A model generated the notes under the pieces. The model did no database searches. It was not told where the DNA came from and was given only the letters and a program-made list of their open reading frames with translations. From positions 123,754,001 through 123,818,000 of the forward strand of contig CM059431.1 of assembly GCA_030390025.1 (NCBI GenBank): a stretch of DNA of 64,000 nt. The letters run 5' to 3'. This document shows positions 6,230 to 44,499 of the stretch, piece after piece (the first letter of the stretch is position 1; each line of letters starts with the position of its first letter). The stretch is from Squalus acanthias. Lineage: Eukaryota. The translations under genes and the position numbers were made by a program.

Positions 6230-6425
6230 TTTTAAAGTGCAGGACGCAGTGGTTGCTGGGTAGGTGATTAATTTTTACCTGTATATAAGTTGGGCGGTTC
6301 CTAAACCCGAGACACTACACTTGTAGTGTCCCCCACCCTTCCTCCTCCTCTAACCTAAAGGAGGTGAGTGACTATCAGGTAAGCTCTTTTTTGTTCTAGT
6401 TTAATCTGCAAGTTAGCTGGAGGGG

Positions 6426-12987: not shown

Positions 12988-15009
12988 ATGTGCAGGTGCA
13001 GCAAGCCATTAGGAAGGCAAATGGTATGCTGGCCTTCATTACAAGAGGATTTGAGTACAGTAGTAAAGAAGTCTTACTCCAATTATATAGGGCCTTGGTG
13101 AGACCACACCTGGAGTACTGTGTACAATTTTGGTCTCCTTACCTAAGGAAGGATATACTTGCCATAGAGGGAGTGCAACGAAGGTTCACAAGATTGATTC
13201 CTGGGATGGCGTGACTGTCGTATGAGAAGAGATTGAGTAAACTAGGCCTGTATTCTCTTGAATTCAGAAGAATGAGAGGGGATCTCATTGAAGCATTCCA
13301 AATTATTACAGAGCTTGATAGGATGGATGCTGGGAGAATGTTTCCCTTGGCTGGGGAGTCTAGAACCAGGGCCACAGTCTCAGGATAAAGGGTAGGCCAT
13401 TCAAGACTGAGACGAGAAGAAATTTCTTCACACAAAGGGTGGTGAATCTTTGGAATTCTCTACCCTAGAGGGCTGTGGAGGCTCAGTCATTGGGTATATT
13501 CAAAACAGAAGTCGATAGATTTCTGACTCGTAAATGCATCAAGGGATATGGTGATAGGGCCGGTGAATGGAGTTGAGGCAGAAGATCAGCCATGATCTCA
13601 TTGAATGGTGGAGCAGGCTCGAAGGGTTCTGATGTAAATCACACACCATCCTGACTTAGAAGTATATCACTGATCCTTCATCATCGCTGGGTCAAAATCC
13701 TGGAACTCCCCACCTAACAGCACTGTGGGAGTACCTTCATCACAGGGACTGCAGCGGTTCAAGAAGACAGCTCACCACCACCTTCTCAAGGGCAGTTAGG
13801 GATGGGCAATAAATGCTGGCCTTGTCAGCGACGCCCACATCCCAAAAACAAATTTACAAAAAGCTATTCATAATCTACATCAATGATTTGCATGAGGGGA
13901 CCAAATGTATTATATCCATGTTTGCTGATGATACAATGTTGGGTGGGAATGTAAGTTGTGAGGAGGATGCAAGGAGGCTTCAATGGGATATAGACAAGCT
14001 AAGTGAGTGGGCAAGAACATGTCAAATGGAATATAATGTGGAGAAATGTGAAGTTATCCACTTTGGTAAGAAAAATAGAAGAGCATTGTATTTTTTAAAT
14101 GGTGAGAGATTGGGAAATGTTGGTGTTCAGAGGGACTTGGGTGTCCTTTTACCCGAATCACTGAAAGTTAACATGCAGGTACAGCAAGCAATTAGGAAAG
14201 CAAATGGTATTTTGGCCTTGATTACAAGAGGATTTGAGTATAAGAGTAAAGACGTCTTACTGCAATTATATAGGGCCCTGTTGAGACCACACCTGGAGTA
14301 TTGCATACAGTTTTGTCTCCTTGCCTAAAGAAGGATATACTTGCCATAGAGGGAGTGCAATGAAGGTTCACCAGACTGGTTCCTGGGATGGGGGGATTGT
14401 CCTATGAGGATAGATTGAGTTGACTAGGCCTATATTCCCTAGAATTTAGAAGAATGAGAGGTGATCTCATTGAAACATACAAATTCTTACTGGGCTTGAC
14501 AGGGTAGATGCTGGGAGGATGTTTCCCCTGGCTGGGGAGTCTAGAACCAGGGGTCACAGTCTCAGAATAAGGGGTCGGCCATTTAGGACTGAGATGAGGA
14601 GAAATTTCTTCAGAGGGTGAGGAATCTTTGGAATTCTCTACCCCAGAGGGCTGTGGAGCTCAGTCGTTGAGTATATTCAAGACAGAGTCCAATAGATTTT
14701 TGAATATTAAGGGATATGGGGATAGTTTGGGAAAGTGGAGATGGGATAGAAGATCAGCCATGATCTTATTGAATGGCGGAGCAGGCTCGAAGGGCCAAAT
14801 GGTCTACCCCTGCTCCTATTTCTTATGTTCTTATGTAACTTGCGGATGACTTGCTTGTTGATTTTTACTGGCTCTGTGTAAGTTTGTGGAACTGTTCAGA
14901 CCTTTCTACAATTATTTAAAGTTGGTGAGGTGAGAGGGAGTGGTGCTGCAAGTGGGGAAGGCCTTGCTTCTGAATTCAAGGGTTCTGCTCACACCACTTG
15001 CTCCCAGTC

Positions 15010-16145
15010 ATGAGGGCTCTACTTGCAGTCCCCCTCGCGCTGCAGCATGACAGGAAGATGGAGCAGAGGCAGCAAAGAAGTGGACAAGTTGCTTGCAGAG
15101 AGAGGAGGAGGAGGGGCAGGAGGGATCTCAGCAGGAGGCCTTACCCACCTAGGGTCTTCCGAGAGCACTTCTCCTACCTGCAGTTAAGCCAGGAGTAGTG
15201 TATTCGGAGGCTCCGCTTCACCAAGGAGGTGGTCACAGAACTCTGCCACCTCCTGGAAGCAAACCTACATCCTCAGCACAGAGCGATGACGGCGCTGCCA
15301 GTAGCCCTCAAGGCCACCATGGGCCTCAATTTTGTCGTCACCGCATCCTTCCAGTCTGCAGCAGGAGACATAGCAAACATCCCCCAGTTTGCCATCCATC
15401 ACATCCGGGAGGTCACAGAGGCTCTGCATTCCAGAGAAGGGACTTCATTGTCTTATCTTTGAGCAAAGAGAAGCAGGAGGAACATGCATGTGGCTTTGCC
15501 AGGATATCAGGCTTCCCCATGGTGCAGGGCGCCATTGACTGCACATATATGGCTTTGCGGGCACCGCATATCAATCCAGAGATGTACCGCAACCTCAAAA
15601 GCATCTCCTCACTTAACGTGCAGTTGGTGTGCGAACACATCCAGCACATCATGATGGTGAATACCCGGTTTCCTGGCAGCAGTCATGATGCCTTCATCCT
15701 GCACCAGTCCGGTGTGCCAGCAATCTTCCAGCCACCACGTCGAACCCGAGGGTGGCTGCTTGGAGACAGGGGCTATCCGCTCTACACCTGGCTGATGACT
15801 TCCCTCCGCAACCCCACCACTCATGGCCAGAAATCTTATAATGAGAGCCATGCTGCCACGAGGAACCTCATTGAGCAGACCAGATGGGTAATAAAGCAAT
15901 GATTCCGCTGCCTTCACCGCTTGGGAGGAGTCCTCCAGTACACGCCGGAGCGGGTGTCCCATTCCAGCATGGTCTGCTGTATCCTCCACAACTTGGCCAT
16001 CAAAAGGGCGCCACCACACGTTCCCCGACCACCTCAGGAGGAGGAGGAGGAAGAGGAGATGGAGGAGGAAGGGAGGAGGCAGGCAGCAGATCCCCATTCC
16101 GGACAGGCTGTCCGTGAGCGCCTCATCAGACTCTGGTTCTCCTGA
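15010..16145 (+). pseudogene. Harbinger DDE transposase pseudogene
   Basis: RRPYPPRVFREH, GAIDCT, GDRGY and IEQT motifs spread over several frames with stops and frameshifts; acidic C-terminal tract. Confidence 0.9.
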
Positions 16146-16335
16146 ATGAAACCCCAGATCTCCATTGCCCAACACTACCCCAACGTATCATCCCTTTGTC
16201 ACGGAACATCACAGAGTCTTTCTGGGCACAAAGCTGAAATGACAGCCACCACATAACAAACATTCCAAACATAATTTATAAATGAATCAATCCAAAACTA
16301 CATAACTAAGTCAACTAATCACCCTTGTGCATTCC

Positions 16336-18115
16336 CTTAGTGTCTGTCTTTCCTGTTCCTTTGCGTATTCTAGTGCTCCTACGCAGCGCTACCATAGTGG
16401 CTGCAGCATGGCTGGTGGAATTCTGCTGACTTTCCGTGTGGGAGACTGCAGATGGCCTCACAGGACGACCTTGAACAGCTCTGGGCCTAGAAGGCTGGCT
16501 GTAGACTGCACCACCTCAGTATGGGCGGCAACAGACTGGGCTGGCTGGCTGACAGGCAGCAGCAAGGGCACTGGCGGAGTGGCAGGGTGGGAGTGTGAAT
16601 GCTGTCATCCTGAGAGAGAACAGCAGGTTCTTGCTCCACGGAGCCACTGCATTTCCCTGGGGCAGCGCCTCAGCATTCCTCGCCATCTGTTGGAGCACAG
16701 ATTGCTGGAGTGCTGTGAGACCCTGTAAGTCCCTTTCCACACTCATAAACCCAGCCATGATGGCATCAGTCTGAGCTTGCATACGAGCAGTCTGAGCTAC
16801 CAGACATTGTACACCACACCACAAGTGTTCTAATGGAGTTGCCCATCACCTCCATTCTGGAAATCATGGGCTCCAAGCTCCACACAAAGCCCCATGCAAT
16901 GTTGGAGCTGGACTCCTCCATGCTCCTTGACACTGACAAGTGGCTCTCTGGCAGGCCTGCCATTGCACCAAGCATTTCTGTTTGTATGCCCATCACCCTT
17001 CTTCTGAAGGCCATCAAAGTCATCATCTGAGTCCCATGCAGCAGAATTCATGTGCGAATTCGCCCTCCGAGGGAGCTGGCACCCGAGCTACCGTTTCCCC
17101 CTGGCCTGGCTGCAGCCTTCTCGTGTCCGATGACTCACCTTGTGCAGATCCCACCTCTATACTACCCTCCAAAGTCCACACAGTGCCATTTTCTGAGCTG
17201 ATGCCTGGGCTTATCAGATCGAGTGATGGTGCCTCTTCTTCTCCATCGCTCTCCTGCTCTACTTGGTCGGGGACAGGCTGGGCTGCTGGCAGTTGAAAGT
17301 AGAAATAAACAAGTCTTGGGTTGTGGTGAGGGGGGGGGCCAGAGAAACCAAGATGTGGATGCTTACACCATCAGCAGCTTGTAAGTGATAAGAGATTGTG
17401 CCATAAGGGGAAGTGGGATGTGAGAAGAAGGATTAGGTATAAACATACCGTCATCAGCAATGCTTTCAACCTCGCCACTCGCCATAGGCTCAGTGATGGC
17501 CTCTGCAATGATCTCCAGCACCGCCTCCTCCATCGCAGTAAGGTTTTGAAGACGTGCTTCAACCCCCCGCCTGTCTGCTTCTGCTCATGGTGGTTGTGAG
17601 GCACCTTGGCCTGCAAGAGAAAGGGAAGCTTGTCAGTGAGTGTGGTGCAATGCGTTTGGCTGATGTGCCTGTCATGGATGAATAGCTGACATTGTGTGCC
17701 AGGTGTGAGATTTGGGTGTGAGGCTTGCAGCAGTGGTAAGTGTGTGAGCGTCAGGTGAAGCTATGATTATGAGGTAAATGAGTTGTGATTGCTAGAGATT
17801 GTTGGTAAGTGAGTGATGGGTGTGTGGTGCATGGAGTGGTGTGTGACGCTAGTGCTGCAGTAGGTGGCATTTGAAGATGCATTCACTCACCTTGACCACT
17901 GATGTGAGGTCATTAAACTGGATCCAGGTCCTGGGGGTAACACACGTGGCACTGACGGCTTGTGCTATCCCTCCCACTGCCTTCTGGCATTCTATCTGGA
18001 GGCCTCCTGCCCCCTGCCAGTAGAGGACCTGTCTTCTTTTGTGTACCTCCAGGACCAAGGCCTCCAGCGCTGCATTTGAGAAGCGCCTTGACCCTTCTCT
18101 TCCCTGTTGCGCCAT
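16336..18115 (-). pseudogene. Harbinger Myb/SANT-like gene pseudogene (exons about 18115-17891, 17610-17449, 17294-16336)
   Basis: RRFSNAALEALV...RTWIQFNDLT|gtgagt; AKVPHNHHEQKQTGGG exon 2; coiled-coil exon 3 with frameshifts. Confidence 0.8.
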
Positions 18116-21250: not shown

Positions 21251-24200
21251 TTGGACAAGGTTGAATAGGTAATGTTGTTGTTGTAAATATGTGTTCACTG
21301 ATTATTAATAATATTATTAATTCAGTTTGGATTATTTTGTGATGTCTCTCATTTCAGCTTTGTGCTGTGAAATGACCTGTGACAGGGATGTAATGATGGG
21401 GATGTGGTGAGCAATGGGGATCTGGAGTTTAATTTATTGGAACCGCAGTCTGATGAGGTGGTCACGGACCGCATTTTTGGAAGGCCGATTGAGTGGCTGC
21501 CTTCTCCCTCGCTCCTGTTCCTCCTCCTTCTCTTCCTCCTCATCTTCCTCTTCCTCTTCCTGAGGTGGTCCCACAATCCCTGGTGGCAAGGGCTGGGCCT
21601 TCGTGATGGCCAAGTTGTGGCACGTGCAGCAGATCTCGCGAAAAGGGACACCCGCTCAGCCGAGTACTGGAGGGCTCCTCCCGCGCGGTCAATGCAGCGG
21701 AACTGTTCCTTGAGCACCCCAATGGTCTGCTCGATGATGTTCCTGTACGCGGCATGGCTCTCATTGTATGAGTGCTGGGCAGGAGTGTTGAGGTTGCGGA
21801 GGGGAATCATAAGCCAGGTGAAGAGCGGATAACCCTTGTCTTCGACTAGCCAGCCGCCAGCTTGACGTGGTGGCTGGTAGAGTGCTGGCACACTGGTCTG
21901 GTGCAGGATGAAGGCATCGTGGCTGCTGCCAGGATAATGGGCATTCACATTGAGGATTTGCTGTCTGTGGTCGCACACAAACTGCACCTTAAGTGAGTGG
22001 TAGCCTTTGCGGTTACGGAAAATCAAAGGTAGTAATCTCCGGATTACTCCCGGTGCCAAGTGCTGGTGAGTAAAGGAATAGAAGAATAGAACAGATGAAT
22101 GTGTGGCTGGAGAGATGGTGCAGGAGGGAGGGCTTTAGATTCCTGAGGAATTGGGACCATTTCTAGGGAAGGTGGGACCTGTACAAGCCGGACGGGTTAC
22201 ACCTCAACAGATCCGGGACCAATATTCTCGCGAGGAGGTTTGCTAGTGTTGTTGGGGAGAGTTTAAACTAGCTTGGCAGGGGGATGTGCACCAACCTATA
22301 GGAATAGAAAAGAGGAATAAGGTGCATAAAAGAGTGAATGTGTTGGATAGTACGAGAGAAGAAAGTAGTACATATAGGAAGTAGTACCATATTAGATAGG
22401 AGCAGACTAAGAAAGACTACAAAAAATTCAAAAATGGGTTTAGAATGCATGTACGTAAATGCACAAAGTGTGGTGAATAAGGCTGGTGAGCTACAAGCAC
22501 AATTAGCTGTGTGGCAATATGATGTTGTGACAATAACGGAAACGTGGCTTAAAAATGGTGAGAACTGGGCAATTAATATTCAAGATACAGGTGTTCAGAA
22601 AAGATAGGGAAGGAAAAAAGGGAGGTGGCGTGGCAGTGCTGATTAAGGAAGACATTGTAGTGTTGGAAAGGGAGGATGTTCTTGAGGGGACAAGGACAGA
22701 ATCCATTTGGTTAAACTTGTAGAGCAAAAAGGGTATGATCACGCTATTGGGGGTATTCGACAGGCCTCCAAATAGTGAGAGGGAGGTAGAGGAGCAAATC
22801 TGCAGACTTTAATCTGGGGGACTTTAATTACCCAAATATCGATTGGGATAATACTAGGGTAAAGGGAAAGGAGGGGGAGAAATTTCTGAAATGTGTTCAG
22901 GAGAATTTCCTTGACCAGTATGTTCTTGGCCCAACTAGGAAGGAGGCATTGCTGGATCTGGTGCTGGGAAATGAGTTGGGCTATGTCGACCAAGTGGATA
23001 ACACTTGGGTACGAGTGATCATCGTATCATAAGATTTAGATTAGCAATGGAGAGGAGCAAGGAACAATCTAGAGTGGAACTTCTAAACTGGAATAGGGCT
23101 AACTTCAATGGGATGCAAAAGCATCTAGTCAGGGTAAAATGGAACCAAAGACTGACAGGAAAAATTGTAACAGAACAATGGGTGATCTTTAAGGAGGAGA
23201 TGTTGCAAGTACAGCCTAGGTACATTCCAACATGAGGGAAGGGTAGGGGAAACAAAGCAAGGGCTCTTGGATGACGAGGGAGATAGAGAAGATGATGAAA
23301 CAAAAAAAGAGGGTGTATGATGCATGTCAGGTCAATTCTTCAAGGGAAAACCAGACCAAATACAATAAGTTGAGAGGGGATGTGAAGATGAAAATAAAAT
23401 TGGCAAAGAGAGAATATGAGAGTAGAATGGCAGTTAACATGAAAGGGAACCTAAAAATCTTCTCCCGGCATGTAAACAGTAAGCAGGTAGTAAGAGGTGG
23501 CGTGGGGCCTATTAGGGACAAAGAAGATGATAAATGCTTAGAGGCACAGGGAAAGGCTAGAATATTCAATGAGTACTTTGTATCTGTGTTTACTAAGGAG
23601 GTGGATGCTGACAAAATATCAGGAGAAGTGGAAAAGGTAGAAGCAATGGAAGGGGTGAAAATTGATAGACAGGATGTACTAGAAAGGCTGGGAATGCTTA
23701 GAGTGGATAAGTCACCTGGTCCAGATGGCTTGCATCCCAGGTTGCTAAGGGAATTGGGGGAGGAGATAGCAGAAGGGCTTGCCATAATTTTCCAATCTTC
23801 CCTAGATGCGGGAGAGGTGCCTGAGGATTGGAAAGTGGCAAATGTGACAACATTTTCAAGAAAGGGTGTAAGGACAATCCTAGTAACTACAGGCCAGTCA
23901 GTTTAACATCAATGGTGGGTAAAGTTTTAGAAACAATAATCAAGAAAAAATTAACGGGCTCTTGGAGAGGTGGTTTAAGCTAATGAAGGAGAGCAAACAC
24001 AGATTTGTAAAAGGCAGATTGTGTTTGACTAATCTAATTAAATTATTTGATGAAGTAACAGGGAGGATTGATAAAGGGAATGCAATAGATGTTATCTGTA
24101 TGGATTTTAGGAAGGTGTTTGACAAAGTACCGCATAGAAGGCTGGTTAGCAAAATTGAGGCTCATGGAATAGGTAGGTCAGTGGCAGCTTGGATAAGGAA

Positions 24201-25117
24201 TTGGCTTAAGGACAGAAAACAGCAAGTTGTGGTAAATGGCTGTTTTTCAGACTGGAGGATGGTCGACAGTGGTGTTCCCCAAGGGTCAGTGCTGGGGCCA
24301 CTGCTTTTTTTGACATATATAAATGACCTGGATATTGGAATACAGAATAGAATTTCTAAATTTGCCGATGACACCATACTTGGGGGTGTGGCAAACAGTG
24401 AGGATGATACCAATCGACTGCAACAGGACATAGAAAGGCTAGCAGAATGGGCAGACAAGTGGCAGATTGAATTTAATACAGAGGAGTGTGAGGTGATACA
24501 TTTTGGCAGAAGGAACAGGGAGAGGTAATATACATTTAATGGCACAGTTTTAAAGTGTGTGCAGGGACAGAGGGACCTGGGAGTTAATGTGCATCGGTCC
24601 CTAAAGGTGGCGGGACATATTGAGAGAGTGGTTAGCAAAGCATATGGGATCTTGGGCTTCATAAATAGAGGTATTGAGTACAAAAGTAGAGAAGTTATGC
24701 TGAACCTTTATAAAGTGCTGGTTAGGCCACAACTGGAGTATTGTGTCCAGTTCTGGTCACCACACTTTAGGAAGGATGTAAAGGCACTTGAGAGGATGCA
24801 GAGGAGATTTACCAGAATGGTCCTGGGGATTGGGGGTCTTAGCTACAAGGACAGGTTGGAGAAGCTGGATTTGTTTTCATTAGGGCAAAGGAGGTCGAGG
24901 GGTGATTTGATAGAGGTGTACAAGATTATGACGGGTTTGGATAGGCAAGACGGGGAAAGGCTGTTCCCACTAGTTGATGGTACAAGGACTAGGGGACACA
25001 GATTTAAGGTTTTGGGCAAGCGATACAGGGGGGATGTGAGGAAAAACTTTTTTATGCAGCGAGTGGTGAGGTCCTGGAACTCGCTGCCGACAGAAGTGGT
25101 GGAAGCGGAGACACTTG

Positions 25118-25918
25118 GGGCTGGATTTTGAACCCGCCTCCTTCGAGATGTGGCCAACCCACTGCATTTTCCCTTGATTGACCTTGTTGAGCCCGCCCAG
25201 TGGGCTCAGCAGGCCATGTAAGGGCCACCCGGCAACAGGTGACATCACAGACTGACATTTCATCTGTCAAGAGCTTTTGACAGATGAAATATCAGCGTTT
25301 GACAGCTCTGTGAAGCTGTCAAACACTGACAGTACGATTTCTAACTTCAGTCCTTCCTTTCAGGCTGAGTTAGAAATCATTCCAGCACAGAAATCAGAAG
25401 GCTGCTGTTTTTGACAGGTCCACAGCTTTCCTGCTTTCTGTGCTGGTGAGATTTCTAACTCCCGAGAACTGAAGGGCTGACACCTGCAGGAGGAAGTTAA
25501 GGTAAGTAAAACTTTTTCCAACACTTAGCACTTACCTTGCACACTTACCTCTGCACACATGCACCCATCACTCACCTGCCCACCGGACATATCGACCCCT
25601 CCAACCCCTGCAGACCCACGGCCCGCCCCGATAACTTGGCGTGGTTGCCACCTGTCGGGAAGCCCACACTTTTCCTTTTAAAATAGGGATTATGCAAAAA
25701 AACTGCCTGTTAACACCCTGTTAACAGGCAGTTAATTGTCACTAATCCCTTCCCGCCTCAGGGAGTCGGGTCTCAGACCAGGTCGGGTACCCACCGCCAG
25801 AGAAACTGGCATGGAGGCGGGTTGGAGTCGGGATGGGGTCGGGACCCCCGATTCTGCAACTTTAACCACCCCCCCCCGCCTGCAAACCCGACTCCACGGG
25901 TCATTGAAAATCCAGCCC
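25118..25918 (-). mobile_element. Harbinger-type MITE family X, diverged reverse copy
   Basis: TIRs GGGCTGGATTTT/AAAATCCAGCCC; same TGACAG hairpin block in reverse; inserted in CR1 ORF2 3' end; TSD imperfect. Confidence 0.85.
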
Positions 25919-26348
25919 TGGATGTTTTCAAGGGGAGGCACTTGAGGGAAATAAACCTGCAGGGCTACGGGGATAGAGCGGGGGAATGGGACTAACTGGA
26001 TTGCTCTACAGAGAGCCAGCATGGACACGATAGGCCAAATGGCCTCCTTCTGTGCCGTTGTGACTCTATGTGCTGGATTTTGATTCAGGGGCGGGCTAGG
26101 GTCGTGTAATCCGCATTTCGTGTTAGCCACCCGAATCTAAATCGATGTGTGAGATTGATGCGATTTTAACATAATTGGCCAATTGAGTTCCAACGTGTGG
26201 GAACCCATGGCCAGTGAGTTTTTACAGTCTGAAAGTCGCTTCCGATGACGTCATCATTGCTGCAGCATTTAAGGTCTGCAACAAGCCTTGCTTCCTCTGC
26301 AGACTGCCAAGCTTCTGCCTTTGCATGTTAGAGGCACCTGCAGGAAGA

Positions 26349-28295
26349 ATGGCCAGCCAGAGACCTAGGTCTGCACCTCGATTTGATGACGTCGCCCTGC
26401 AAGCTTTAATTGAGGGAGCCAGAGCTAATAAGGAGGTGCTCTTCCCTTCTTCAGGGAGGAAGAAGCCTTCCCATCAAACCAAGGCTGTGTGGATCCAGGT
26501 GGCAGAGGAGGTCAACTCGTTGTCCATAACCCGCAGAACCTGGCTTCAGTGCAGGAAGAGGTTTCATGACCTGCTGCGCACTGGAAAAGTGAGTATGAAT
26601 TTCCCATCACCCTCATTCTGATCCTCATTGCCTCTCCTCACCAGCACTCAGCTTTGACAACCTCTTCCTCCACATCCCACTTGACATGGACATCCCTGCA
26701 CCCTTACCCATTCCCTCTCTCTGTCTGGTCACATTTACCTAACTATTTGATTATGCAGCCCTCACACTCCCTATCGCTGTGATGCTATGAAAACAATCTT
26801 ACAACACACAGGAAGGGCCCATGGTCTTGCCACCTAACTCCAAATTTGTCTCCTTCTAACCATCAATGATATAGATTTCTCACTCAAACTCCACTTGTCT
26901 CCCTCATTGCAGGAAAAGAGAGCTCACAATAAGAGGGAAAGAGCAAGGACAGGAGGAGGGCCACCCTCAGTAGCCCAGCTCACCACCTGGGAGGAGTCGG
27001 TCCTGGAGATCATGGGAGTGGAGGAGGATGTGCAAGTGGGGGACGGACAGACGGGTGCATCAGAGCAAGCTGGTGACAGAATAGTTTATCATCTCTCTCA
27101 TTGACATTGCATGAGTGACTGATAATGATTCTGATGCTCCAGCAGACTGACTTATGATCATCTGCAATATGCAATGTGCATGTAACCTTGGACTCACATC
27201 TCTGACTCTTTCCTTTACTCCCCCCCAGGACCATCGCAAGCAGCTGTCCCCACCGTCCAGGTGGAAGTGCATGAGCCTCACCACTCCTCAGAGGAAGCTG
27301 CAATCTCTGAGGGCGCCGCATCAGCAGAATTCAGCGCACCCAGCACCAGCGCAGACACTCACACCTCGGAGGGAACATCGCGAGATAGAGTAGTGTTGTC
27401 ACCTGGTGTATCACAGCTCACAAGTGAGCATCAGCAGATAGTGGAGACAGGGACAACAGTGGAGAGTCCTAGTCAGAGGGCGCAGAACTCTCCTAGCTTG
27501 GCTCAGCTGCATGTTGACCCTCTGCCTCTGGGTCCATCCATAAGATCAGCAGTGCTGGAACTCCAGGAACAGATGCAGGAGTCTCTGGCATGTTTTGTCT
27601 CCAGGGTCACTGTGAGTGTGGAGCGAATGGAGGAGTCCATCGCTAACATGAGCAGAGCCTTTGTGGAGTCATTGGCGCATGAACGCATCACCACGGAAAG
27701 GATGGCAACCTCCGTGGAAAGGATGGCTACAGTAGAGGAGAGGATGGCTATGGCTATGGAGGAGATAAGTCGCCAGAGTGTAGAAAACATGGTCATTGTT
27801 CAGAATAGACTGGCATCTCTTGAGGAGCGATGGTCATCTATTGAACACAGAAACCAGACCTTCATGGAAGTCCTTCTGAGTAGGACTTCCAGTGCAGATA
27901 CGGGTCCTCATGGCCCCCCTGCAGTGCAGCAAGGTGCTGTCAAGCCACTTGCTAGCTCTGAAGTGGGGCTGACCCATGAGAGGGATGTTGGTGGCAGACA
28001 ACAAGGAAGTGGGGGCTCCTCTCCAAGCGCTCACACGACCAAGCCACTGCAAAGCCCTCAGTCAGAGCCCCACCAGAGTCCTCACCCAACTGAGATCGGC
28101 GTCTCAACCCCTGCACAGCCGCAGGAGCAGCAGACTGTTGCCGAGCCCTCACAGGCTCGCAACCCCAGAGAACGCCCGCCAAAGGTTTCGAGGAAGGAGC
28201 AGCAAGAAAGTGAGCAAGGGGCCTCCACATCTGCTGAAGCCACAGGGGAAGCACCATGTAGGAGCATGCGTAAAAGAAAAATAATGCACAAGTAG
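26349..28295 (+). CDS. Harbinger Myb/SANT-like DNA-binding protein; join(26349-26588,26913-27072,27229-28295), 488 aa
   Basis: GT-AG introns in phase 0 and phase 1 keep one open frame. N-terminal domain APRFDDVALQALIEG...VWIQVAEEVN...RTWLQCRKRFHDL, then EKRAHNKRERARTGGG, a coiled coil and a basic C-terminus. Confidence 0.85.
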
Positions 28296-28553
28296 TATCA
28301 AGGGTAGTCACTTGGGTGTTATGTTGTGTTTAATCTTGAAATGCCAGCACTTGCTTGGTGTGATTAAAAATTCTGCTGGCAAACTGCTGAAGTTGTGGCG
28401 TCTGTCATTTCGCAAATGGGACTTCCACATTGAGGGCTTAGGATGACTTGCAATTGTCAGTATGGTGGTCAGAGTGATAGTAATCCGCAGGTTCCTGGCC
28501 ATTGTCAATGGTCTGATAAGAAGGTGCGAGGTAAAAGTGTGTGATTGTGCAGG

Positions 28554-28796
28554 CTAAGCAAATCTGGTCAAGAGCGTCCCTTGCATCTCGGGCAGCAATG
28601 TGGACGCGCGCTGGCGCCTTCTGGCCTGTGCAGCTTCAGGTGGGTGAGGAGCAGCTTGGCACTCCTGTTGATGCTGCTGCTGCTGGTGGTGCTGTTGTTC
28701 ATGGTTCTGCTGCTGCCGTTCATGGTTCTGCTGCTGCCACGGCTGGTCTTCGTCCGAATCTGATGTCCAGGAGGAAAGGAAATAAATGGTTCCCAT
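28554..28796 (-). pseudogene. Harbinger transposase remnant: Q-rich N-terminus fused to the extreme C-terminus
   Basis: MG...SDSDEDQP+Q-rich matches the N-terminus at 43920. Another frame reads VHIAARDARDAL, matching the C-terminal AHIAARETRDGL near 42030. No DDE core between them. Confidence 0.7.
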
Positions 28797-31629
28797 GCTT
28801 CTGGTATATGCCTCAGTTGAGGAAGCGCTCAGTCAAGGTGGTGAGAGGGGTTTCCCAGGAGTTCACACTGGAGATGGGTGTCAGGCTCCAAACTTCCACA
28901 GCTGTGGTTATGCCATATAAAAGTTCCCCCAGACCTCAGAGAACAAAGTCCTGCCAACTGCAAATGATGGCTGATCACATCTCCTATTTTATGGTTGAGC
29001 TGCAGCTGATAGTCAGCAATCCAAATGTGTTACCGCCAGGTTTCACATTCGTGGTTCAGAACAGGCGTGCTTCACGTGGAAAAAGGGTTAAAATCACAAA
29101 GGCCTTTCAAAATGGCATTATAGAGGCAATTTAGTGCTTGTTAAGGGCCTTAACGGCCTATCCCGCCTCTTGGAGGTGGGACGGAGTCGGGACCAGCAGA
29201 CACGATTTAATGAAAATTGCGTGGAGGCGGGATGGAGGCGGGCTTGTGCCCGCCCGCCAGTTTTCGCAATTTTAACCCCCCACATGCCTCCAAACCCGCC
29301 TCCACGGCTCAATGAAAATTCTGCCCTATGACTCTATCTCAGGATTGTTATACGGTGCCCGCAAAACCACGTGGGTGCAGTCAATGGCGTCCTGTACCAT
29401 GGGGAAGGCTGCTATCCTGGCAAAGCCACATGCACATTCGTTCTGCTTCTCTCTAGTGATGAGGAAGGAAATGTAATCCCTTCTCCTACTGTAGAGAGCC
29501 TCTGTGACCTCTCGGGTGGAGCGATGGATGGCGAACTGCGAGATGTTAGCTATGTCTCTTGTTGCAGACTGGAAGTTTCCGCTGGCGAAGATATTGAGGG
29601 CGACGGTGACCTTGTCTGCCACTGAGAGAGCCGTGGTCACCCTAATCTGAGGCTCGCGGTCTGGTTGAAGGAGGTAGCAGAGTTCTGTGGTGACCACCTT
29701 CTTGCTGAAGCAGAGCCTTCTAGTACACTGCTCCTCGCTTAATTAGAGGTAGGAGAAGTGCTCTCGGAATACCCTCGGAGAGTAAGGCCTCCTGTTGAGA
29801 GCCCTGATGGCCCTCCTCCTCCCTCTGGCCACATGTTCCAATCTTTCTCGCTGCCTCCGCTCCCTCCACCGTAGATCCTGGAGGGCGAGGGCGACTGCCA
29901 GTACAGCCCCCATTAATGTAACCAAGTGTAGCACTTTGATATGTTGTGAGAATAAATGTAACTAATTGTTAGCAGCCACAACATTCCTGATACTAAACAA
30001 CCTTTAAATGACTGAATTAAACTGTTGCACAATGTCAAACTGACAAGGAAGCAGTGAAACAGCACTAACATGACAGCTGCGACTCATTACTCATGATCCC
30101 TTTAAGTAGCGCCCCTGGAGCTGGCATCTGCCTGCTTGACACCTCCTCTCCCTGTTGCTGTCGGGGTGAGGCACTAAGGCAGGGGGGCGACAATGAATTT
30201 TGCAGATCGGGCGCCCGGTGAGTGTTGCACGCTCACTGACATCACGCTCTGCCTGCCGCTGAGGTCCCCGGTGATAACTCATAGCGGCAGCTCTATGGGG
30301 GGGGGGGGGGGGGCAGATTTGGCATGCGTCGCTGGATTCGCCTCGCTCCAGTGCTACTGCATCAGTGCCCCATTAGCACCCCTGCCAAGCTCTAACTTGA
30401 GGCACTAAACAACTGAATTTTTCCCCATTCAGGAGAGAGTTCTCGAGGGTAGAGATATAATGGCTGAGAGAGTGGGAAGAACAATGGGTGATAGGGCATA
30501 CAGATGAAGCAGATAGGGTAGGACCAAACCATGAAGAGATTTGAAAATGAGGTCAAGGGTCTTAAAAACAATTCATAGTGATGCAGGGATCCAGAACAAC
30601 TTGGTAAGGTTCCGGCTGGGAGAGGTGTGGAACTTTGTACAAGTGATGAGGTTGGCAGCAGTGTTCAGAAGGTGTTGTAGGGGTAGAGGCAGGAAGCGAT
30701 GGCTTTGAGAGCATCTGTAAAGGTAAAGCGTTAAGATATTAAAGTCATTGATTAGTATTGTTAGATTTGGTATTGTTCCCAAAGATAAGACTAAAACAAC
30801 AAGGTGTAGTCCAACACTTCAAAGAGCTGATTTTGCACCCATTGGAAGAGTTCTAGGGAAAATTAATTGGGAAATCACATCTAAATATAGATAACAGAAG
30901 AAAATATAACACATTTTAATGCCATTATACCAGAAGAAAGGAAGTGCATTCCATTTAAAAGAAATAAGGAACATAGCAAGACCTAGACTACAATGGTTTA
31001 CTAAGGAGATTCAGAACGCTGTTACCTACGTCACCATCCCCACAAAGTCCTGCACCCCTTTTAGCTGCATTCTTTCCCGCCTCCATCCCAATCAATCCCA
31101 GGTTAAGCCTGCTTGAGTGTTTCACTTTGTGCTAAGCTATTTTTAAAATTGCATATTTCCTCAAATCAGAACCACTTCAAGAAAAAAACCTAACAAACAA
31201 GTAGAAGATACAAGGAAACCAATAATGGGAAAAATTAAGATTCATACAAAAGGCAACGGCAGTAAATTGAAAATTAAGTGAGAAATGGAGGGACAAATTG
31301 CAGGGGCAGCAAGATGCACCCAAAAATTGTTTACATTTTACAAATGTTTTGGTCTTCACTATCTGTGGGGAATTCTGCTGGAGCGGATCGCCTGCCCATT
31401 GTAGAACCCACTCAATTTTCATTCTATCAAAATCAATAGAAAGAAAATCACATGGGTTCTACAATGGATGGCCAATCCACTCTGCTAGATTACCATCCAG
31501 GCGATGAAGATGAAAATTTGCCTCTATGTTGATAGCAGAAGGGAGGTCAACAAACACTTGGTTCCATTTAAGGGTAAATTGTACACAACTATTACAGGTG
31601 ATCAGGATATGGCAGATGTATTGATTATA

Positions 31630-38505: not shown

Positions 38506-41187
38506 ATGGAGGCTCAGCGCCAGAAGGCTGCGCCCAGGTTTTCTGATTCCTCCCTGGAAATCCTGCTCCAGGGAGTGAGAGCACGCATGGAGGCCCTGTT
38601 CCCTGGTGATGGGAGGAAGATGCCAACTGCTACAACAAACAGGGCATGGCTGGAGATTGCCCACAAAGCGAGCAGCAGAGGTGTTGTGAGCCGCTCCTGG
38701 ATCCAGTGTAGGAAGCGATTTAATGACCTCATGAGGTCAGCTAAGGTGAGTACAATGCCACGTTCAACTACATCCTGATGTGAGTGTCACCCCAACCCCA
38801 TCATTCTGCCTTCCCAAACCTACTCCTGCACAACACCCCTCACACAAACCTACCTTGCAGGTACACCCATCTCCCACTGTCTATGCACCTACTCACATCC
38901 CCATCTCACTATCCAGCACAGACACTCACCCTCAGCCTAATGCAATCATAGAATCATAGAAAGTAATGCCACAGAAGGAAGCCATTTGGCAATGTCACGC
39001 CACTCCCGCATTGTCACCCTGTACAGATGTAACCCATCCATCCCTACACTCAACAAGTTCTCTTGTTTCCCTCCTTGCAGGAGAATAGAGCACAGAACAA
39101 CAGGGAGAGACAGAGGGCCCGTGGTGGCCTCCAATTTTGAGTGCATTGATGGCAGCAGAGGAGGAGGCACTGGAAATAAGTGGAGTTGCAGAGCTGCTGG
39201 CAGTGGGAGATTAAGAGAGGGGGACAGAATGAAATATCATACAGCCACATGGCATACAACAGTCACTCATGGTGTCATGGGGCGTGATCTTGCCAGCCCT
39301 GGGGAAGTGGGTATGGAGGCGGGACTGCCGGGAAAATGGCAGAATTTAGGGGCGGGTGCCCAACCCGCCCCCAACCCAACTCCATGCCATCTTGCTGGTA
39401 GCCGTCCCGCGTCGGGTCCCGTCTCCTTGGAGGTGGGAAGGGATTAAAGCCTATTAACTGCCTGTTAACAGGTAGTTAACAGGCAGAAAATAGGATTATC
39501 CCCTTCTTGCCTTCACAAGTGCGGGCTTCCCGAAGGCTCCGAAACCCGCCAGGTCAGCGAGGCGAGTACTGGGTCTGCGGGGGTCGGGGGGGTGCAAAAG
39601 TGTGCTGTGAAGGTAAGTGATGGGTGCAAGAGTGGAGAGGTGAGTATCTGAGGTAAGTGCAAAGTGTTATTAAAAGTGTACTTACCTTTGTTTCTTCCTG
39701 CCGGCTTCAGTCGGTGTGTATGCGGAGAGTCTCGGACCTCTGCGGTCGAGATGACAGATGGCCGTTGCATTCTCAGATGCAACAACCATCTCATTTCTTC
39801 AAAAGAAAGATGTTTGATGAGGTCTTGAATTCAAGACCTCATCAAACTACAGAGAATGTCAGTGTTTGACAGTTTCACAGAACTGTCAAACAATGACAAT
39901 TCATCTGTCAAAAATCTTTGACAGATGAAACATCATACGTTGATGTTCTCTGCAACCGGCTTTCCCTTAATTGGCCTGCTAAGCCTACTGGGCGGGCTTA
40001 ACAAGGTCTATCAAGGGAAAATAGCGTGGGTTGGCCAGAAGTTGTTAGAGGCGGGACTGAAACCCAACAAATGGGAGTCCCGCCTCCAAAAGCTCCCCAT
40101 TGGCAAAATCACCCCCTTGTCAGCAGCCAGTGAAATATGATCATGTGCATAATGGTAACTTACAACATTCTTATCATTACATTTCCAATTCATCTCTTTA
40201 CTCTCCCACAGGTCCATCAAGTGCCCCCGCGCCCCCACTGTCCAGCCCGAGGAGGAAGACGACTGCTCAGAGGAAGCTCCAGCCTCTGAGGGTGCACCGT
40301 CAGCAGACCCAAGCGCAGCCAGCACCAGTGCAGATACGCACACGTCAGTGGGTCATATGAGAGATGGAGTAGTGTTCTCACCTGGTGTCTCAGACATCAC
40401 AAGTGAGCAAGAGCAGATGGTGGAGAGAGGGAGAGCAGTGGAGACTCCTCGCCAGAGGGCGCAGGGTGCTCCAAGCTCTGCTCAGCTGGATGCAGATGCT
40501 AAACCTCGGGTTCTGTCAGTAAAGAGGATGATCTTGGAGGAGGAGCAAAAAATGAGGGAGGCTCTGGCAGCTTTTCCAGCCGCGATGTGCTCGATTGTAG
40601 GGAGGATTGAGGAGTCTATCTCCAACATGAGCAGCACCATGTCACAGGCGATGACGACGATGTGCTCTTCCATGGAAAGGATGGCCACCTGCATGGAGCG
40701 GCAAATGTGCCAGTCAAACAAGAACATGCTTGCTGTAAGCAACAGCTTGCATACTCTTACTGCAGTCATATCTAGGAGGGATACCAAGCTAGACTTGGGC
40801 AATCATCGCCCCACTGATGTGCAGCAAGGTGATCTCCAGCTTCATGCTAGCAGGGAGGTGTGGGTGGTCCATGAGAGAGATGATGGTGAGAGGGGACATT
40901 GAAGTGGGGGCTCTGCTCTAAGCACTCCCACTTCTCCCTCATTGCCTTCCCTTCAGTCAGAGCCCCACATATTGCCTCGGATCCCGATGATCGAGTCTGA
41001 TCCTGCGCAGGTGCAGGAGGAGCAGTCTATGGCGGGGCCCTCACAGGCTCCAAAACCCAGGGGACGTCCGCCAAAAGTGTTTGAGCAGTCAGAGCCGGGA
41101 AGTGAGCAGCCTGCCTCTACCTCTGCTGAAGCCACAGTGGGTGCATGTCGTCGAAGCACTAGGAAAAGAAAAATGACACAATTGTAG
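38506..41187 (+). pseudogene. Harbinger Myb/SANT-like pseudogene (exon 1 38506-38745, exon 2 from 39081, exon 3 40212-41187)
   Basis: APRFSDSSLEILL...WIQCRKRFNDL|gtgagt; premature stops in exon 2 and at 40900-40902; clear homolog of 26349-28295. Confidence 0.85.
39280..40116 (+). mobile_element. Harbinger-type MITE family X variant in Myb intron 2
   Basis: TIRs GGGCGTGATCTTGCCA/TGGCAAAATCACCCCC; flanks ATG/TTG; body colinear with 3932-4768. Confidence 0.85.
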
Positions 41188-41302
41188 ATGCACAAGGGTA
41201 TGCATATGGATGTTTTCCAAGATGTTACATTGTTGGTTTCATTTCTATTTGTAACCCACATAAATTTATTTCTTTGCACCACTTTCCCGTTTTGTCTTGT
41301 GA

Positions 41303-41790
41303 TTCACCAGGCTGATACCTGGGATGGCAGGAATGATGTATGAGGAGAGATTGGGTCGATTAGGCTTATATTCGCTAGAGTTTAGAAGAATGAGAGGGGA
41401 TCTCATTGAAACTTATAAAATTTTAACAGGACTAGACAGACTAGATGCAGGAAGGATGTTCCCGATGGCGGAGGAGTCCAGAACTAGGGGTCACAGTCTA
41501 AGGATAAGGGGTAAGCCATTTAGGACTGAGATGAGGAGGAATTTCTTCACCCAGAGAGTGGTGAACCTGTGGAATTCTCTACCACAGAAGGCAGTTGAGG
41601 CCAATTCATTAAATATATTCAAGAAGGAGTTAGATATATTTCTTAAGACTAACGGGATCAAGGGATATGGGGAGAAAGCAGGGACAGGGTACTGAATTTG
41701 GATGATCAGCCATGATCTTATTAAATAGCGGAACAGGCTCGAGGGGCCGGATGGCCTACTCCTGCTCCTATCTTCTATGTTTCTATGTTT
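41303..41790 (+). mobile_element. CR1 3' fragment
   Basis: YEERLGRLGLYSLEFRRMRGDLIE...RTRGH; 3'UTR and (TTTCTATG)n tail. Confidence 0.9.
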
Positions 41791-42339
41791 GTCCATTTTT
41801 GCCTGTTACCTGGGAAGTGGCCTTTTCAGTTGGACTGAATGGTCAGACATTACTTAACCTCGACCAAAGGATGTGGGTGTGATAGGAATGGTTTGGTCAT
41901 TTTAGGACTGCTTTGTGGTTTTGGGGCATGAGGGGGAATCTGCTTCTGCATCGGGGTGACATATGGGTGCACTGGTGCAACCTTACTAAATCGTGCCATT
42001 ATGAGACCATCCCGGGTCTCCCGCGCAGCAATGTGCGCCGCTGCTGGTGCCATCTGCACCTCAGGTTCCTCCTCCTCTTGTTCCACCTGCTCCTCCTCCT
42101 CTGAGGAGGCTCTGCACTCTGCGCCTTGCTCCTCCTGCAGCTCCAATCCTCGCTGCTACGCTATGTTGCGCAGTGCGCAGCATACGATGATCATTCTGGA
42201 GACCCTGCCTGGTGCATACTGAAGGGTCCCTCCAGATCTGTCCAGGCATCTGAAGCATATCTTCAGCATACCGATTGCTTGCTCTATTACACATCTGGTC
42301 ATTGATGTGGCTTTGATTATAATGCTCTTCAGCCACAAT

Positions 42340-43060
42340 GGCCCGTATTTTCAGACCCCCTCGGGTGTGTACGAGCTGTGTGCACACCCGTAGGGGTCTC
42401 GCAAGTGTTGGCTTCAGGCATGCGAAGTGTGCTGAAAACCGGCACTTCTGATCTGTCAAGAATCCTATTGACAGATCCTCCACCCGCCCTGGAGAAGGGC
42501 CTCTGCGGGTGGAGAGTTCCGCTTTCTGTACAACCTCCACCCGCTGAAAACCTTTAAAAATCTTACGCCTGGTAAAAGCCTGCATAAGGCCTGCTTTTAC
42601 CAGCATAAGAGTTTAAAAAAGTAAAAAAAATCATTTTTTTTTTACTCATTTATAATTTAAAAATACTTCTAAAAAAGGTAAGTTTATTTCAGCCCCGTAA
42701 ATAATTTTTTTTTTCAAAATATTTAATTTAATGTAATTTTAACTCATTTAAAATACGTGATTTAAAAAAAATATATTTAATGTTTTAGTGTGTTTTTTGA
42801 CTGATCCCCATTCATACTTTTGACAGGTCTAAGCTGTCAAAAGTGTGAAGGGGGATTCCCTTCTTTCATTGGTTCCCCATGGCCCATGTGATCCCAGGGA
42901 CGCTTGCGAACTGCCTGCGCCCCTGGGATACCTGGGCCTCTGCGCATTAGAGGCCCAGGATCGGAAGTGTCGGGACCTACGGAGACAGCAGGTAAGTTCG
43001 TAGATTTTCCAGATCGGAGGCATCCGCACGCAGGAAGCCTCCAATCAGAAAATGTGACCC
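42340..43060 (+). mobile_element. Harbinger-type MITE family Y, copy 1
   Basis: TIRs GGCCCGTATTTTC/GAAAATGTGACCC; flanks AAT/ATT; reverse homolog of 60506-61263. Confidence 0.85.
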
Positions 43061-43816
43061 ATTGCTTGGCCTCCTCAAGGGTTTCATCAGCCACGTCTTC
43101 AGTGGATAGCCCTTGTCTCCAAGCAGCCAGCTGGTGAGTCTGTTCGGAGGTGTGAAGTGCTGAGAGAGGGTGAACTGGTGGAGGATGAAAGAGTCATGAC
43201 AGCTCTCTGGGAATCTGGCACACACATGCATGATGATCTTTTTGTGGTTGCAGACAAGCTGCACATTGAGGGAGTGGAAGCTCTTATGGTTCACAAACAC
43301 TCCTGGGTGATCTGGGGGTGCCTTGATGTACACATGTGTGCAGTCAAAGACGCCCTGCACCTGTGGGAAGCCAGCCAGAGCCACAAAGCCGAGCGCCCGC
43401 TCAGTAACACTGGCTTCATCAGTGGCAAAGTGCACATAAGTGCCTGACTTGTGAAACATGACATCGGTCACCTAGGTGATGCATCTGTGTGCGGCCGACT
43501 GCGAGATCCTGCAAATGTCTGTTGTAGATCCCTGGAAGGAGCCTGAGGCATGGAAGGTGAGGACGGTGGTGACTTTGATAGCCACTGGTAAGGCGTGTTC
43601 ACCAGGTCCACTTGGCAGTAGGTCTTCTTCCAGCAAGCTACAAATGTCTGCATTGACATGACGCAATAGCCTGAGTCTCCTGAGGCACTGCTGTTCAGTT
43701 AGGTCCAGGAAGGTGATCCTCTGCCTATATACCCTGTGTTGGGGGTATCACCTCCGTCGAGGTGGACCCCTTTGCTGATCCCCCCTCTCCTGTGGAGGAG
43801 CAGGTCGGTGAGGAGA

Positions 43817-43819
<3 letters not shown>

Positions 43820-43848
<29 letters not shown>

Positions 43849-43864
43849 ATTGTTGTTGCTGCTG
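43820..43864 (-). repeat. CAG/CAA trinucleotide tract
   Basis: (CTG)9 CTA (TTG)3 (CTG)2 on the + strand. Confidence 0.9.
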
Positions 43865-44499
43865 GGGCTCATCTTGGTCTGAATCTGAGTCTAAGTTGAA
43901 ACAGTATAAGCGGCACCCATGCTGATCTGATAGATGCCAGGTAAAGTGGAGATCAGAGGCACAATCCTCCAATGTAGTGAGAGTGGCTTCCGAGGTTGCA
44001 GAAATCACCTGCAAACTCCTGAAAGCAAATTCTCTGCAACAATGGTGTCAGCAAGACCCTTTCCCTTCGGCAAGATAGCAGGTGTGAGGTGTGAGTATTT
44101 ATGTGATTATTTCAACTGTCAATTGTTCAACTCACACAATGGCCGGTCACTTCTCGCCTTGCTTTGACATCTTAATGGTCTGTTAATGACTTCTTCAATA
44201 CTTCAGTGAGGTCGCCCGCCTCCCCCAAGCGGGTCTCTGGCACGCTGAGAAACGCGCCGGAGTAAAAGGCGGAAGTCGACGGGATGAAGGCGGGTTCCTG
44301 ACGCACTGTCAATTTCAGCGCTGTCAATTTCAGCGCTTTTAACAGCCCACCCGCTCGCAAACCCACAGTCATTTCAATGGGAAAATTCCGGCCTTATTTT
44401 TCAATGTGGTCTCCTTATTTCTCCAACCAAAATTCATCACTTCACACTTACCTATATTGAAATTCATTTGCCACTTACACAGCCATTCTGTAAGTTTAT

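Follow-up and report, generated by a model that had tools for sequence, protein, structure and literature searches.

A Harbinger element in Squalus acanthias with an open Myb/SANT gene and a deleted transposase

Harbinger transposons that have kept a DNA-binding gene and lost the transposase are already on record. In sea snakes of the genus Laticauda, solo-ORF variants of Harbinger-Snek code for the DNA-binding protein alone and exist in many copies (intact ones number 452 in L. colubrina and 6 in L. laticaudata); Harbinger-Snek also comprises full elements, variants with just the transposase, and short forms without coding sequence, according to the part of PMC8437027 consulted. For the nematode Caenorhabditis inopinata, the consulted part of PMC13668399 describes Harbinger-1M_cIno, a MADF-only element with TIRs and a 3-bp TSD, for which its authors propose an in-trans division of labour that they call hypothetical. 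A survey of fishes recorded no Harbingers in the elephant shark and called for the study of other cartilaginous fish (PMC9179366). Our search of openly accessible papers, Repbase and supplements aside, listed no paper on Myb-only Harbingers in sharks.

The element described here occupies positions 26070-29326 of a 64,000-nt stretch of Squalus acanthias DNA, analysed as a whole and called the window below. With a probability of about 0.7, we regard it as a non-autonomous copy, shortened by internal deletion, from a two-gene Harbinger family that is abundant and fairly young.

Structure of the element and its insertion site

The termini of the element and the repeats around it are the following:

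21440-29913, minus strand: Harbinger A, older and outer, its transposase split by CR1 (29913-29338, resuming at 22021-21440), with ATC duplicated
22025-29335, plus strand: host CR1-type LINE fragment, whose 3' end houses both the element and MITE X
25118-25918: MITE X, about 800 bp, with relatives at 67-70% in other parts of the window
26067-26069: left TSD TAT, its partner TAT lying at 29327-29329
26070-26083, plus strand: left TIR, starting GTG, with T at position 2 against G in the other termini of this type
29127-29312: right subterminal region, with five GGAG(G/T)(C/T)GGG sites and 75% likeness to the MITE X end
29313-29326, minus strand: right TIR
29327-29329: right TSD TAT

As inverted repeats, the two TIRs agree at 10 of 14 positions. 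GGG opens each of the seven other termini of the family type that were listed for the window, and the T at position 2 of the left TIR is probably a post-insertion change; single changes at TIR positions 1-3 reduce mobility in mPing, as stated in the part of PMC9921582 consulted. Excision of the element and one TAT in silico restores a perfect tandem 8-mer CR1 tail, and because only TAT does so, the TSD is TAT and the alternatives (a TSD of 2 bp, or none) were ruled out. Both the TIRs and the TSD of the preliminary description are thereby confirmed. The flanks fit the pattern A-N-N-Y-[TSD]-R-N-N-T, as do those of MITE X and of the MITE at 3932, and the TSDs at two related MITEs are TTT and TTG/TGG. 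With TIRs, a 3-bp TSD and a Myb/SANT DNA-binding gene, the element shows these features of PIF/Harbinger (PHIS) elements; its TAT is neither the TWA of the narrow PIF/Harbinger group nor the CWG of NuwaI, as these are defined in the consulted part of PMC4482050, and one insertion does not define a consensus for the family.

The Myb gene is predicted to have three exons on the plus strand:

26349-26588, plus strand: exon 1 of 80 codons, encoding a Myb/SANT-like domain that includes F12, W48, W65 and F72
26589-26912, plus strand: intron 1, GT..AG, phase 0, with a 1-nt insertion at 26797 that is absent from other copies
26913-27072, plus strand: exon 2, 160 nt
27073-27228, plus strand: intron 2, GT..AG, phase 1
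27229-28295, plus strand: exon 3, 1067 nt to the stop, with an acidic/low-complexity part, a heptad-like middle and a basic C-terminus

The predicted frame encodes 488 aa plus a stop and is free of lesions. Exon 1 matches PF13873 (37.6 bits against a cut-off of 21.7), and residues 1-484 of the spliced protein align with Heptranchias perlo XP_067827223.1 (39%, E 3e-84) gapless at both junctions, which upholds the intact spliced gene reported earlier. Splicing is predicted here from homology and not from reads; in two runs guessed to be RNA, introns are covered like exons and no splice joint is among the 15 joints listed (18 more), which speaks neither for nor against expression. Among named proteins, identity reaches at most 60% with exon 1 and 43% with exon 3, and relatives were found neither in genome contigs searched with exon 3 nor in viral contigs searched with exon 1.

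The transposase remnant, and the sister element that was used to map the deletion, are located as follows:

28554-28607, minus strand: transposase 3' end with the C-terminal helix and the stop, in a different frame from the N-terminal part, and with a 5-nt loss at 28573
28607-28608: deletion breakpoint, with look-alike sequence of about 16 nt on both sides
28608-28796, minus strand: transposase 5' end, ATG plus 63 codons, Q-rich
38506-44393: sister Harbinger C, of the same layout, its transposase full-length but broken

The remnant is 243 nt long (28796 to 28554): at 28608|28607, 63 N-terminal codons run directly into the final ~54 nt of the gene, and both halves match sister element C. Sized against the intact transposase D, about 1 kb (~335 codons) is missing, including the whole DDE domain; PF13359 has no match in the remnant, and tblastn with transposase D as query found nothing within 26070-29326. 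The intact DDE transposase that an autonomous Harbinger carries in the same element is therefore absent. A join of about 240 bp between the Q-rich N-terminus and the end of the gene had been correctly described, while the C-terminal helix included in that description is read out of frame, with only its last four residues in frame. These four arise through the 5-nt loss at 28573, and because the 80-aa open remnant frame needs this loss, which is missing in other copies, its reading as a functional peptide was rejected. Searched against proteins, the 80-aa frame gave nothing at E <= 10 among 78 longer and 2 similar-length candidates, which are weak negatives.

The family and its deletion forms

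The element belongs to an abundant, multi-copy Harbinger family. Relatives at least 85% alike are present in all four runs analysed (34,424 contigs in one run, and 7,472, 1,544 and 1,613 in the others) and cover 30 of 30 bins, and the right end is joined to other flanks in run X1 (29330 to 26034 and 29330 to 26036) and in run X16 (29326 to 26410). Summed contig depth was not taken as a copy number, as the flanks are also repeats and hence provide no single-copy control. At the break, 23 X1 contigs (agreement 0.88) depart at 28608, and from there the reading frame of the N-terminal codons runs on into ..RRRYP, the arginine-rich motif found in full transposases; transposase-bearing relatives are therefore present and varied, and a need for a foreign transposase is not supported, since these relatives, at least 85% alike, run in frame into a transposase of their own.

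Several other deletion forms can be read from the 15 joints listed (18 more). The form lacking 88 nt between 27303 and 27392, which shifts the Myb frame, has a contig depth of 556 in X1 against 34-117 for diverged single pieces; in X17, the Myb-breaking deletions 28033 to 28108 (74 nt) and 26503 to 27994 have depths of 281 and 67, with diverged pieces at 2.5-61. Since these depths lie in some cases well above those of diverged pieces, deleted forms spread with or without an intact Myb gene. The family also has its own cognate MITE of about 576 bp (26281 to 28963), found in X16 and X17.

The following history would account for these observations. In the tail-to-tail layout of Myb gene and transposase displayed by the family, about 1 kb of transposase was lost between the two look-alike stretches at the break, probably by gap repair or a slippage-type mechanism. 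Both ends having been kept, such a form could then be mobilised by the transposase and the Myb protein that full-length copies of the family supply, in line with established Harbinger biology; shorter elements transpose somewhat better, according to the consulted part of PMC10288884. The copy inserted into the CR1 tail at a site of the preferred form A-N-N-Y-[3 bp]-R-N-N-T and would have drifted neutrally by ~1.5-2.5% since then, as estimated from 10 visible changes. We propose that the Myb frame is open because the copy is young, not because it is needed, and that, whether the deletion is private or shared, this gene most likely rides along as a passenger.

Selection, youth and rival readings

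Differences between the element and its family include 40 listed (449 more), 16 of them in coding sequence. At 10 coding sites more than 90% of X1 depth differs from the element; 8 of these copy-specific changes are nonsynonymous and 2 synonymous, where 2.5 synonymous are expected under neutrality (p = 1.0), in a test of 10 sites only, all in exon 3. The element's own coding changes look neutral in pattern, and a Myb gene preserved by selection is not supported by them. At family-split sites, 4 of the 6 listed are synonymous (p = 0.035), and dN/dS between the element and sister C is 0.18 in exon 1, where dS is near saturation, and 0.56 in exon 3; as far as these sequences tell, constraint is present in the history of the family and cannot be dated after the loss of the transposase. 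The open 1,467-nt frame counts against neutral drift, with a 21-41% chance of staying open after 1.5-2.6% drift from substitutions alone and a 2-10% chance if one indel is assumed per 10 substitutions; in the 12 entries listed (3 more), two copy-specific indels fall beyond the coding exons and none within them. This low chance is softened because the copy was chosen for being intact.

The element could instead belong to a semi-autonomous helper subfamily sharing the junction, in which the Myb protein is made and recruits transposase from other copies to the family ends, while selection maintains the gene for raising the transposition of its own subfamily. We consider this unlikely: besides the 8:2 ratio of copy-specific changes and the spread of Myb-breaking forms, contigs leaving at the break number 23 against 13 at a copy-specific indel, and no junction-bridging contig is among the 32 pieces listed (45,125 more). 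A protein made in the cytoplasm works in trans, so that selection in cis would be weak, which also speaks against a helper. The depth at 28604, 4 nt from the break, shows no dip in X1 (rank 16 of 22 comparable sites), the picture that a junction common to many copies would give, and ranks 7, 4 and 6 of 22 in X6, X16 and X17, which argues the other way; it is a weak junction test, with a ~30-fold spread among comparable X1 sites and disagreement between runs. Support for a helper subfamily comes from the open three-exon frame with its canonical splice sites, from near-identical contigs of exon 1 in two further samples (differing at 0 of 171 and at 3 of 241 letters), from the smaller family subset carrying exon 1 and the left end (X1 bin depth of 15-49k, against 180-890k for bins 26525 to 29023), and from the transposition of the MADF-only element of C. 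inopinata in the laboratory, reported in the consulted part of PMC13668399. In metagenome contigs the exact junction pattern matched once, over 38 nt of an unrelated 180-kb contig, and this match was dismissed as chance. The odds are about even that the deletion is private to this locus or the mark of an amplified Myb-only subfamily like that of Harbinger-Snek.

The smaller subset also suggests that the element may represent a distinct subfamily. A bolder and rather improbable version is that a Myb-only subfamily, marked by one transposase deletion and by a left end and exon 1 of its own, swapped in from another lineage, was amplified in several shark species with its Myb gene maintained by selection, giving new DNA specificity to the transposases of neighbouring subfamilies and steering which ends move (its own, those of the ~576-bp MITE and perhaps those of X-type MITEs). 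It is retained because the junction may be shared, because exon 1 occurs on a smaller near-identical subset, and because synonymous divergence from sister C is higher in exon 1 (0.73) than in exon 3 (0.45; Fisher p = 0.0002).

That the Myb protein would be a specificity factor moving X-type MITEs is quite unlikely. The right end of the element matches 117 nt of MITE X (25802-25918) at 75% (E 3e-19 within the window), matches two other MITEs (68-69%) and element C (66%) as well, and the left end has no match anywhere in the window and no 9-mer site; the close resemblance previously noted is thus an overstatement. Sharing between the right end and X-type MITEs does hold for the repeated 9-mer GGAG(G/T)(C/T)GGG, of which 18 of 22 sites in the window fall in 200-nt end zones of the element and X-type MITEs (0.6 expected) and five at the right end of the element (0.009 in shuffles), motif and end zones having been picked after the sequence had been seen. 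Family D carries a different repeat, which favours the link; the 9-mer is also present in element C, and the X-type MITEs of the window are 17-33% apart in pairwise hits, far more than the element is from its own family. A special tie to MITE X is not supported, as a cognate MITE exists within the family itself and MITE X stands no nearer to the element than a sister family does.

A copy serving the host, as transposition repressor or early domesticated gene, is very improbable, even though Harbinger Myb genes were repeatedly domesticated in jawed vertebrates (consulted part of PMC9392472) and a related Myb-like protein forms one 90%-identity cluster across Hypanus, Hemitrygon and Mobula, given TIRs and TSDs that are still in place, insertion into the tail of a CR1 that itself sits in another transposon, changes that look neutral, membership of a high-copy family and the low identity to named proteins.

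Comparison with known systems

The family of the element resembles two-gene PIF/Harbinger and NuwaI transposons, as covered in the consulted part of PMC4482050, in its TIRs starting GGG, 3-bp TSD and Myb/SANT and DDE genes, and its inferred parent length of ~4.3 kb fits them too; the element departs from them in its deleted DDE domain and its TSD. Harbinger3_DR (Sinzelle et al. 2008, as cited in the consulted parts of PMC9179366 and PMC9392472) is of the same two-gene class. The H. perlo protein, named 'myb-related transcription factor, partner of profilin-like', is colinear over the whole 488 aa and belongs to a different family. NAIF1, MSANTD1-4 and MYPOP share the domain origin, and in the consulted part of PMC9392472 they are single-copy, syntenic and immobile; domesticated genes of the NAIF1/MSANTD type have lost their termini, whereas this is a high-copy repeat flanked by TIRs and a TSD. 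Copies of the Myb-only kind could plausibly furnish the material from which Myb-like genes have repeatedly been domesticated in vertebrates.

The preliminary description proposed a semi-autonomous class. An open Myb gene, a need for transposase in trans, non-autonomy and a multi-copy family all stand, while a new kind of element is not supported, Myb-only Harbingers having been published for Laticauda and C. inopinata (consulted parts of PMC8437027 and PMC13668399). The element is a shark example of a known Harbinger deletion-derivative class, in an elasmobranch genome where Harbingers are abundant and varied. Should the junction be common to many copies in several species, it would provide a direct test of whether the Myb gene is kept by selection or only by youth, which both of those papers leave open.

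Harbinger-1M_cIno has, like the element, one DNA-binding gene, TIRs and a 3-bp TSD (TWA there, TAT here), and its authors propose the same in-trans model; in C. inopinata one intact DDE gene is left and a new insertion was observed (consulted part of PMC13668399), whereas transposase-bearing relatives seem plentiful in the shark family and the element gives no sign of present movement. Harbinger-Snek solo-ORF variants, likened here by description, differ in host and family, and multi-copy status is shown for them only (consulted part of PMC8437027); they are likewise vertebrate Harbingers with the DNA-binding gene kept and the transposase deleted, and the element, with its Myb gene open, both ends kept and its transposase deleted, has the same solo-ORF form.

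Structure of element B and its surroundings

Element B (26070-29326) is a real, non-autonomous Harbinger that has kept its ends, while its membership in an amplified Myb-only subfamily is unproven. TAT is found at both flanks, excising B with one TAT gives back a perfect tandem 8-mer CR1 tail, and the TIRs agree at 10 of 14 positions. The pattern A-N-N-Y-[TSD]-R-N-N-T fits the flanks in three of the three cases scored (B, MITE X at 25118-25918 and a MITE at 3932), the scoring having left out a fourth MITE and element D (ends uncertain); TSD classes are defined in PMC4482050. The left TIR carries a T at position 2, against a G in the other termini, and by analogy with TIR changes in mPing and their effect on mobility (PMC9921582), the B copy is probably impaired in mobility. 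Two coding features lie inside B:

26349-26588, 26913-27072, 27229-28295: exons of the Myb gene, together 488 aa, stop-free
28796->28554, minus strand: transposase remnant, its two parts matching the two ends of the full-length but broken transposase of C, the sister Harbinger at 38506-44393

Exon 1 matches the PF13873 profile above its curated cut-off, and residues 1-484 of the spliced product align with H. perlo XP_067827223.1 (39%, E 3e-84), both junctions being gap-free. The nearest named proteins are from cartilaginous fish: exon 3 matches proteins of Heptranchias perlo and of Pristiophorus japonicus (5 matches, 35-43%), and exon 1 those of these two species and of rays (7 of 50 matches looked up), which makes a shark or a relative the most likely host. 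Comparisons of ends, exons and homology thus confirmed the TIRs, TAT TSD, spliced 488-aa Myb frame and collapsed transposase of the preliminary description. Both transposase ends named there are present, but the reading frame of the N-terminal piece does not continue into the C-terminal helix. About 335 transposase codons are absent, and the intact D transposase (386 aa, PF13359), used as query, had no match inside B.

In rays, a protein of 363-420 aa has a Myb domain related to that of B (60% to exon 1). Its sequences from Hypanus sabinus, Hemitrygon akajei, Mobula birostris and M. hypostoma form one cluster at 90% identity, each species contributing one contig. It is a candidate domesticated Harbinger Myb gene; such domestication is treated in PMC9392472.

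CR1-type LINE pieces and Harbinger elements crowd the window, whose 64 kb contain six or more loci derived from Harbingers. The transposase of the older outer Harbinger A (21440-29913) is interrupted by a CR1 fragment (22025-29335) with ATC duplicated, and its frame is restored on rejoining both sides. The 3’ end of this CR1 contains MITE X as well as B, with about 150 nt between them, and a four-level nest thus occupies 21440-29913. Other features are:

14995-17688, 44507-46658, 48629, 62251: decayed Harbinger transposase or Myb pieces
6417-10249: CR1, possibly young, whose 1005-aa endonuclease/reverse-transcriptase frame is uninterrupted and which also has an ORF1-like frame of 311 aa
32421-36542: Harbinger D, structurally complete in appearance, with a stop-free transposase of 386 aa (PF13359, 134.8 bits) and, convergent with it, a putative Myb gene of long open exons

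Relatives of B in sequencing runs and the transposase deletion

The B stretch is wholly or partly present in 20 of the 23 runs listed, with shares of 0.33-0.63 in 19 runs from 8 studies (8 labelled organisms and one unlabelled), and the run with the highest share may be the source sample of the window. If changes are evenly spread, a share of 0.44-0.63 means that about 1.5-2.6% of positions differ. Contigs at least 85% alike to B number 34,424 in run X1 and 7,472, 1,544 and 1,613 in the other three runs aligned (X6, X16 and X17), covering 30 of 30 bins. The right end of B meets different flanks in two contigs of X1 and one of X16, so that B has a multi-copy family, summed contig depth not being treated as copy number. 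The spread of X1 identity classes (4,240 contigs at 99+, 9,958 at 95-99, 14,094 at 90-95 and 6,132 below 90%) indicates several related subfamilies. X1 contigs joining 29330 to 26034 and 26036 are apparently two further insertions in a similar CR1 3’ end, a few bases apart, and the family may have inserted into CR1 tails repeatedly.

The joint 26281->28963, found in X16 and X17 (organisms A and B) among 15 joints listed (18 further), would represent a cognate MITE of the B family of about 576 bp (26070-26281 plus 28963-29326), with which a depth step at 26287 and an X6 loose end at 26281 agree. Deletions breaking the Myb frame occur at depth 556 in X1 (diverged single pieces there 34-117) and at depths 281 and 67 in X17 (pieces 2.5-61). 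Evidently, the family gives rise to deletion forms in large variety, and these can spread without an intact Myb gene. Among PIF/Harbinger elements, excision and insertion are more frequent for the smaller ones (PMC10288884).

Twenty-three X1 contigs match from 28608 on and differ before it; by hand translation of the minus strand, the differing letters extend the 63-codon N-terminus in frame into an arginine-rich motif ending YP, found at the same place in C and D. The break thus lies at 28607|28608, and transposase-bearing relatives exist in varied forms, though possibly within the 90%-alike subfamilies and not in that of B itself. The odds that other copies also carry the junction are about even. 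In favour is the X1 depth at 28604 (389k, 65 contigs; rank 16 of 22 comparable fixed-difference sites), even though this position is flanked by a copy-specific 5-nt loss 31 nt away and by the break 4 nt away on the other side. Against it count ranks of 7, 4 and 6 of 22 in X6, X16 and X17, the 23 loose contigs at the break vs 13 at a copy-specific 1-nt indel, and the lack of a bridging contig among 32 pieces listed (45,125 further). About 16 nt of look-alike sequence at both sides of the deletion, judged from C, blurs this test and suggests how the deletion may have arisen. A search for relatives of the junction or remnant in metagenome contigs and protein databases gave nothing usable.

Selection and possible mosaicism in the Myb gene

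Maintenance of the Myb gene by selection is not indicated. Coding differences make up 16 of 40 differences listed (449 further), all 16 in exon 3; the 10 sites where more than 90% of X1 depth is unlike the B copy comprise 8 nonsynonymous and 2 synonymous changes (p = 1.0; neutral expectation for the synonymous share 24.6%), and 4 of the 6 sites with a family split are synonymous (p = 0.035). Between B and C, exon 3 gives a dN/dS of 0.56 and exon 1 one of 0.18, with dS of exon 1 near saturation. Constraint along active lineages with drift in the inserted copy would be the usual picture. The chance of an open frame after such drift is 21-41% with substitutions only, which counts against a neutral reading, and 2-10% once indels are assumed at a rate of 1 in 10; the intactness of the gene is therefore somewhat lucky, in a copy that had been picked for intactness.

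Over 26287-26524, the DNA-binding exon has a small fraction of the remaining element's depth in all four runs; in X1, depth is 15-49k over exon 1 and the preceding stretch vs 180-890k from intron 1 to 29023, although a low-diversity stretch with fewer overlapping contigs would likewise lower summed depth. Long near-identical contigs of this region occur in X16 and X17 (0/171 and 3/241 differences), and synonymous divergence from C is 0.73 in exon 1 vs 0.45 in exon 3 (Fisher p = 0.0002). As a lead only, the exon may mark a smaller subfamily of mosaic history, with an exon or left-end swap possible. A selection-kept Myb helper with a swapped DNA-binding exon is improbable.

Terminal motifs and comparison with known Harbingers

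The likeness of the right end of B to MITE X, reported earlier, amounts to 75% over 117 nt, but at one end only, and two other MITEs and C reach 66-69%. The motif GGAG(G/T)(C/T)GGG, picked after inspecting the sequence, has 22 sites in the window, of which 18 fall within the 200-nt zones taken at nine ends of B and the X-type MITEs, where 0.6 would be expected; the right end of B has five and its left end none. It supports common ancestry of the B/C/X ends and is a good candidate for a predicted Myb-binding site of this wider group, unlike which D repeats a different subterminal 7-mer, TTAGCGC. That B mobilizes X MITEs is improbable: the 9-mer does not mark B in particular as the partner of X, given that X-type copies differ by 17-33% from one another and that the B family has its own MITE. 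X-type MITEs (25245-25461; related ones about 39850-39930) have common internal short inverted repeats, the TGACAG/CTGTCA hairpins.

Two-gene elements are described in PMC5741667, and transposition requires both Harbinger proteins, of which the Myb-like one binds the element ends as well as the transposase (PMC9179366, citing Sinzelle et al. 2008). In the literature searched (incomplete coverage), no paper on Myb-only Harbingers in sharks was found. Myb-only Harbingers as such are already in print (PMC8437027, PMC13668399). Harbinger-1M_cIno is a MADF-only element, mobile in the laboratory, for which its authors proposed an in-trans partition of the two functions that they termed hypothetical (PMC13668399). 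Harbinger-Snek has multi-copy solo-ORF variants (in Laticauda colubrina, 452 intact copies that encode only the DNA-binding protein; PMC8437027), and B would resemble these variants in retaining its ends and drawing transposase from its own family.
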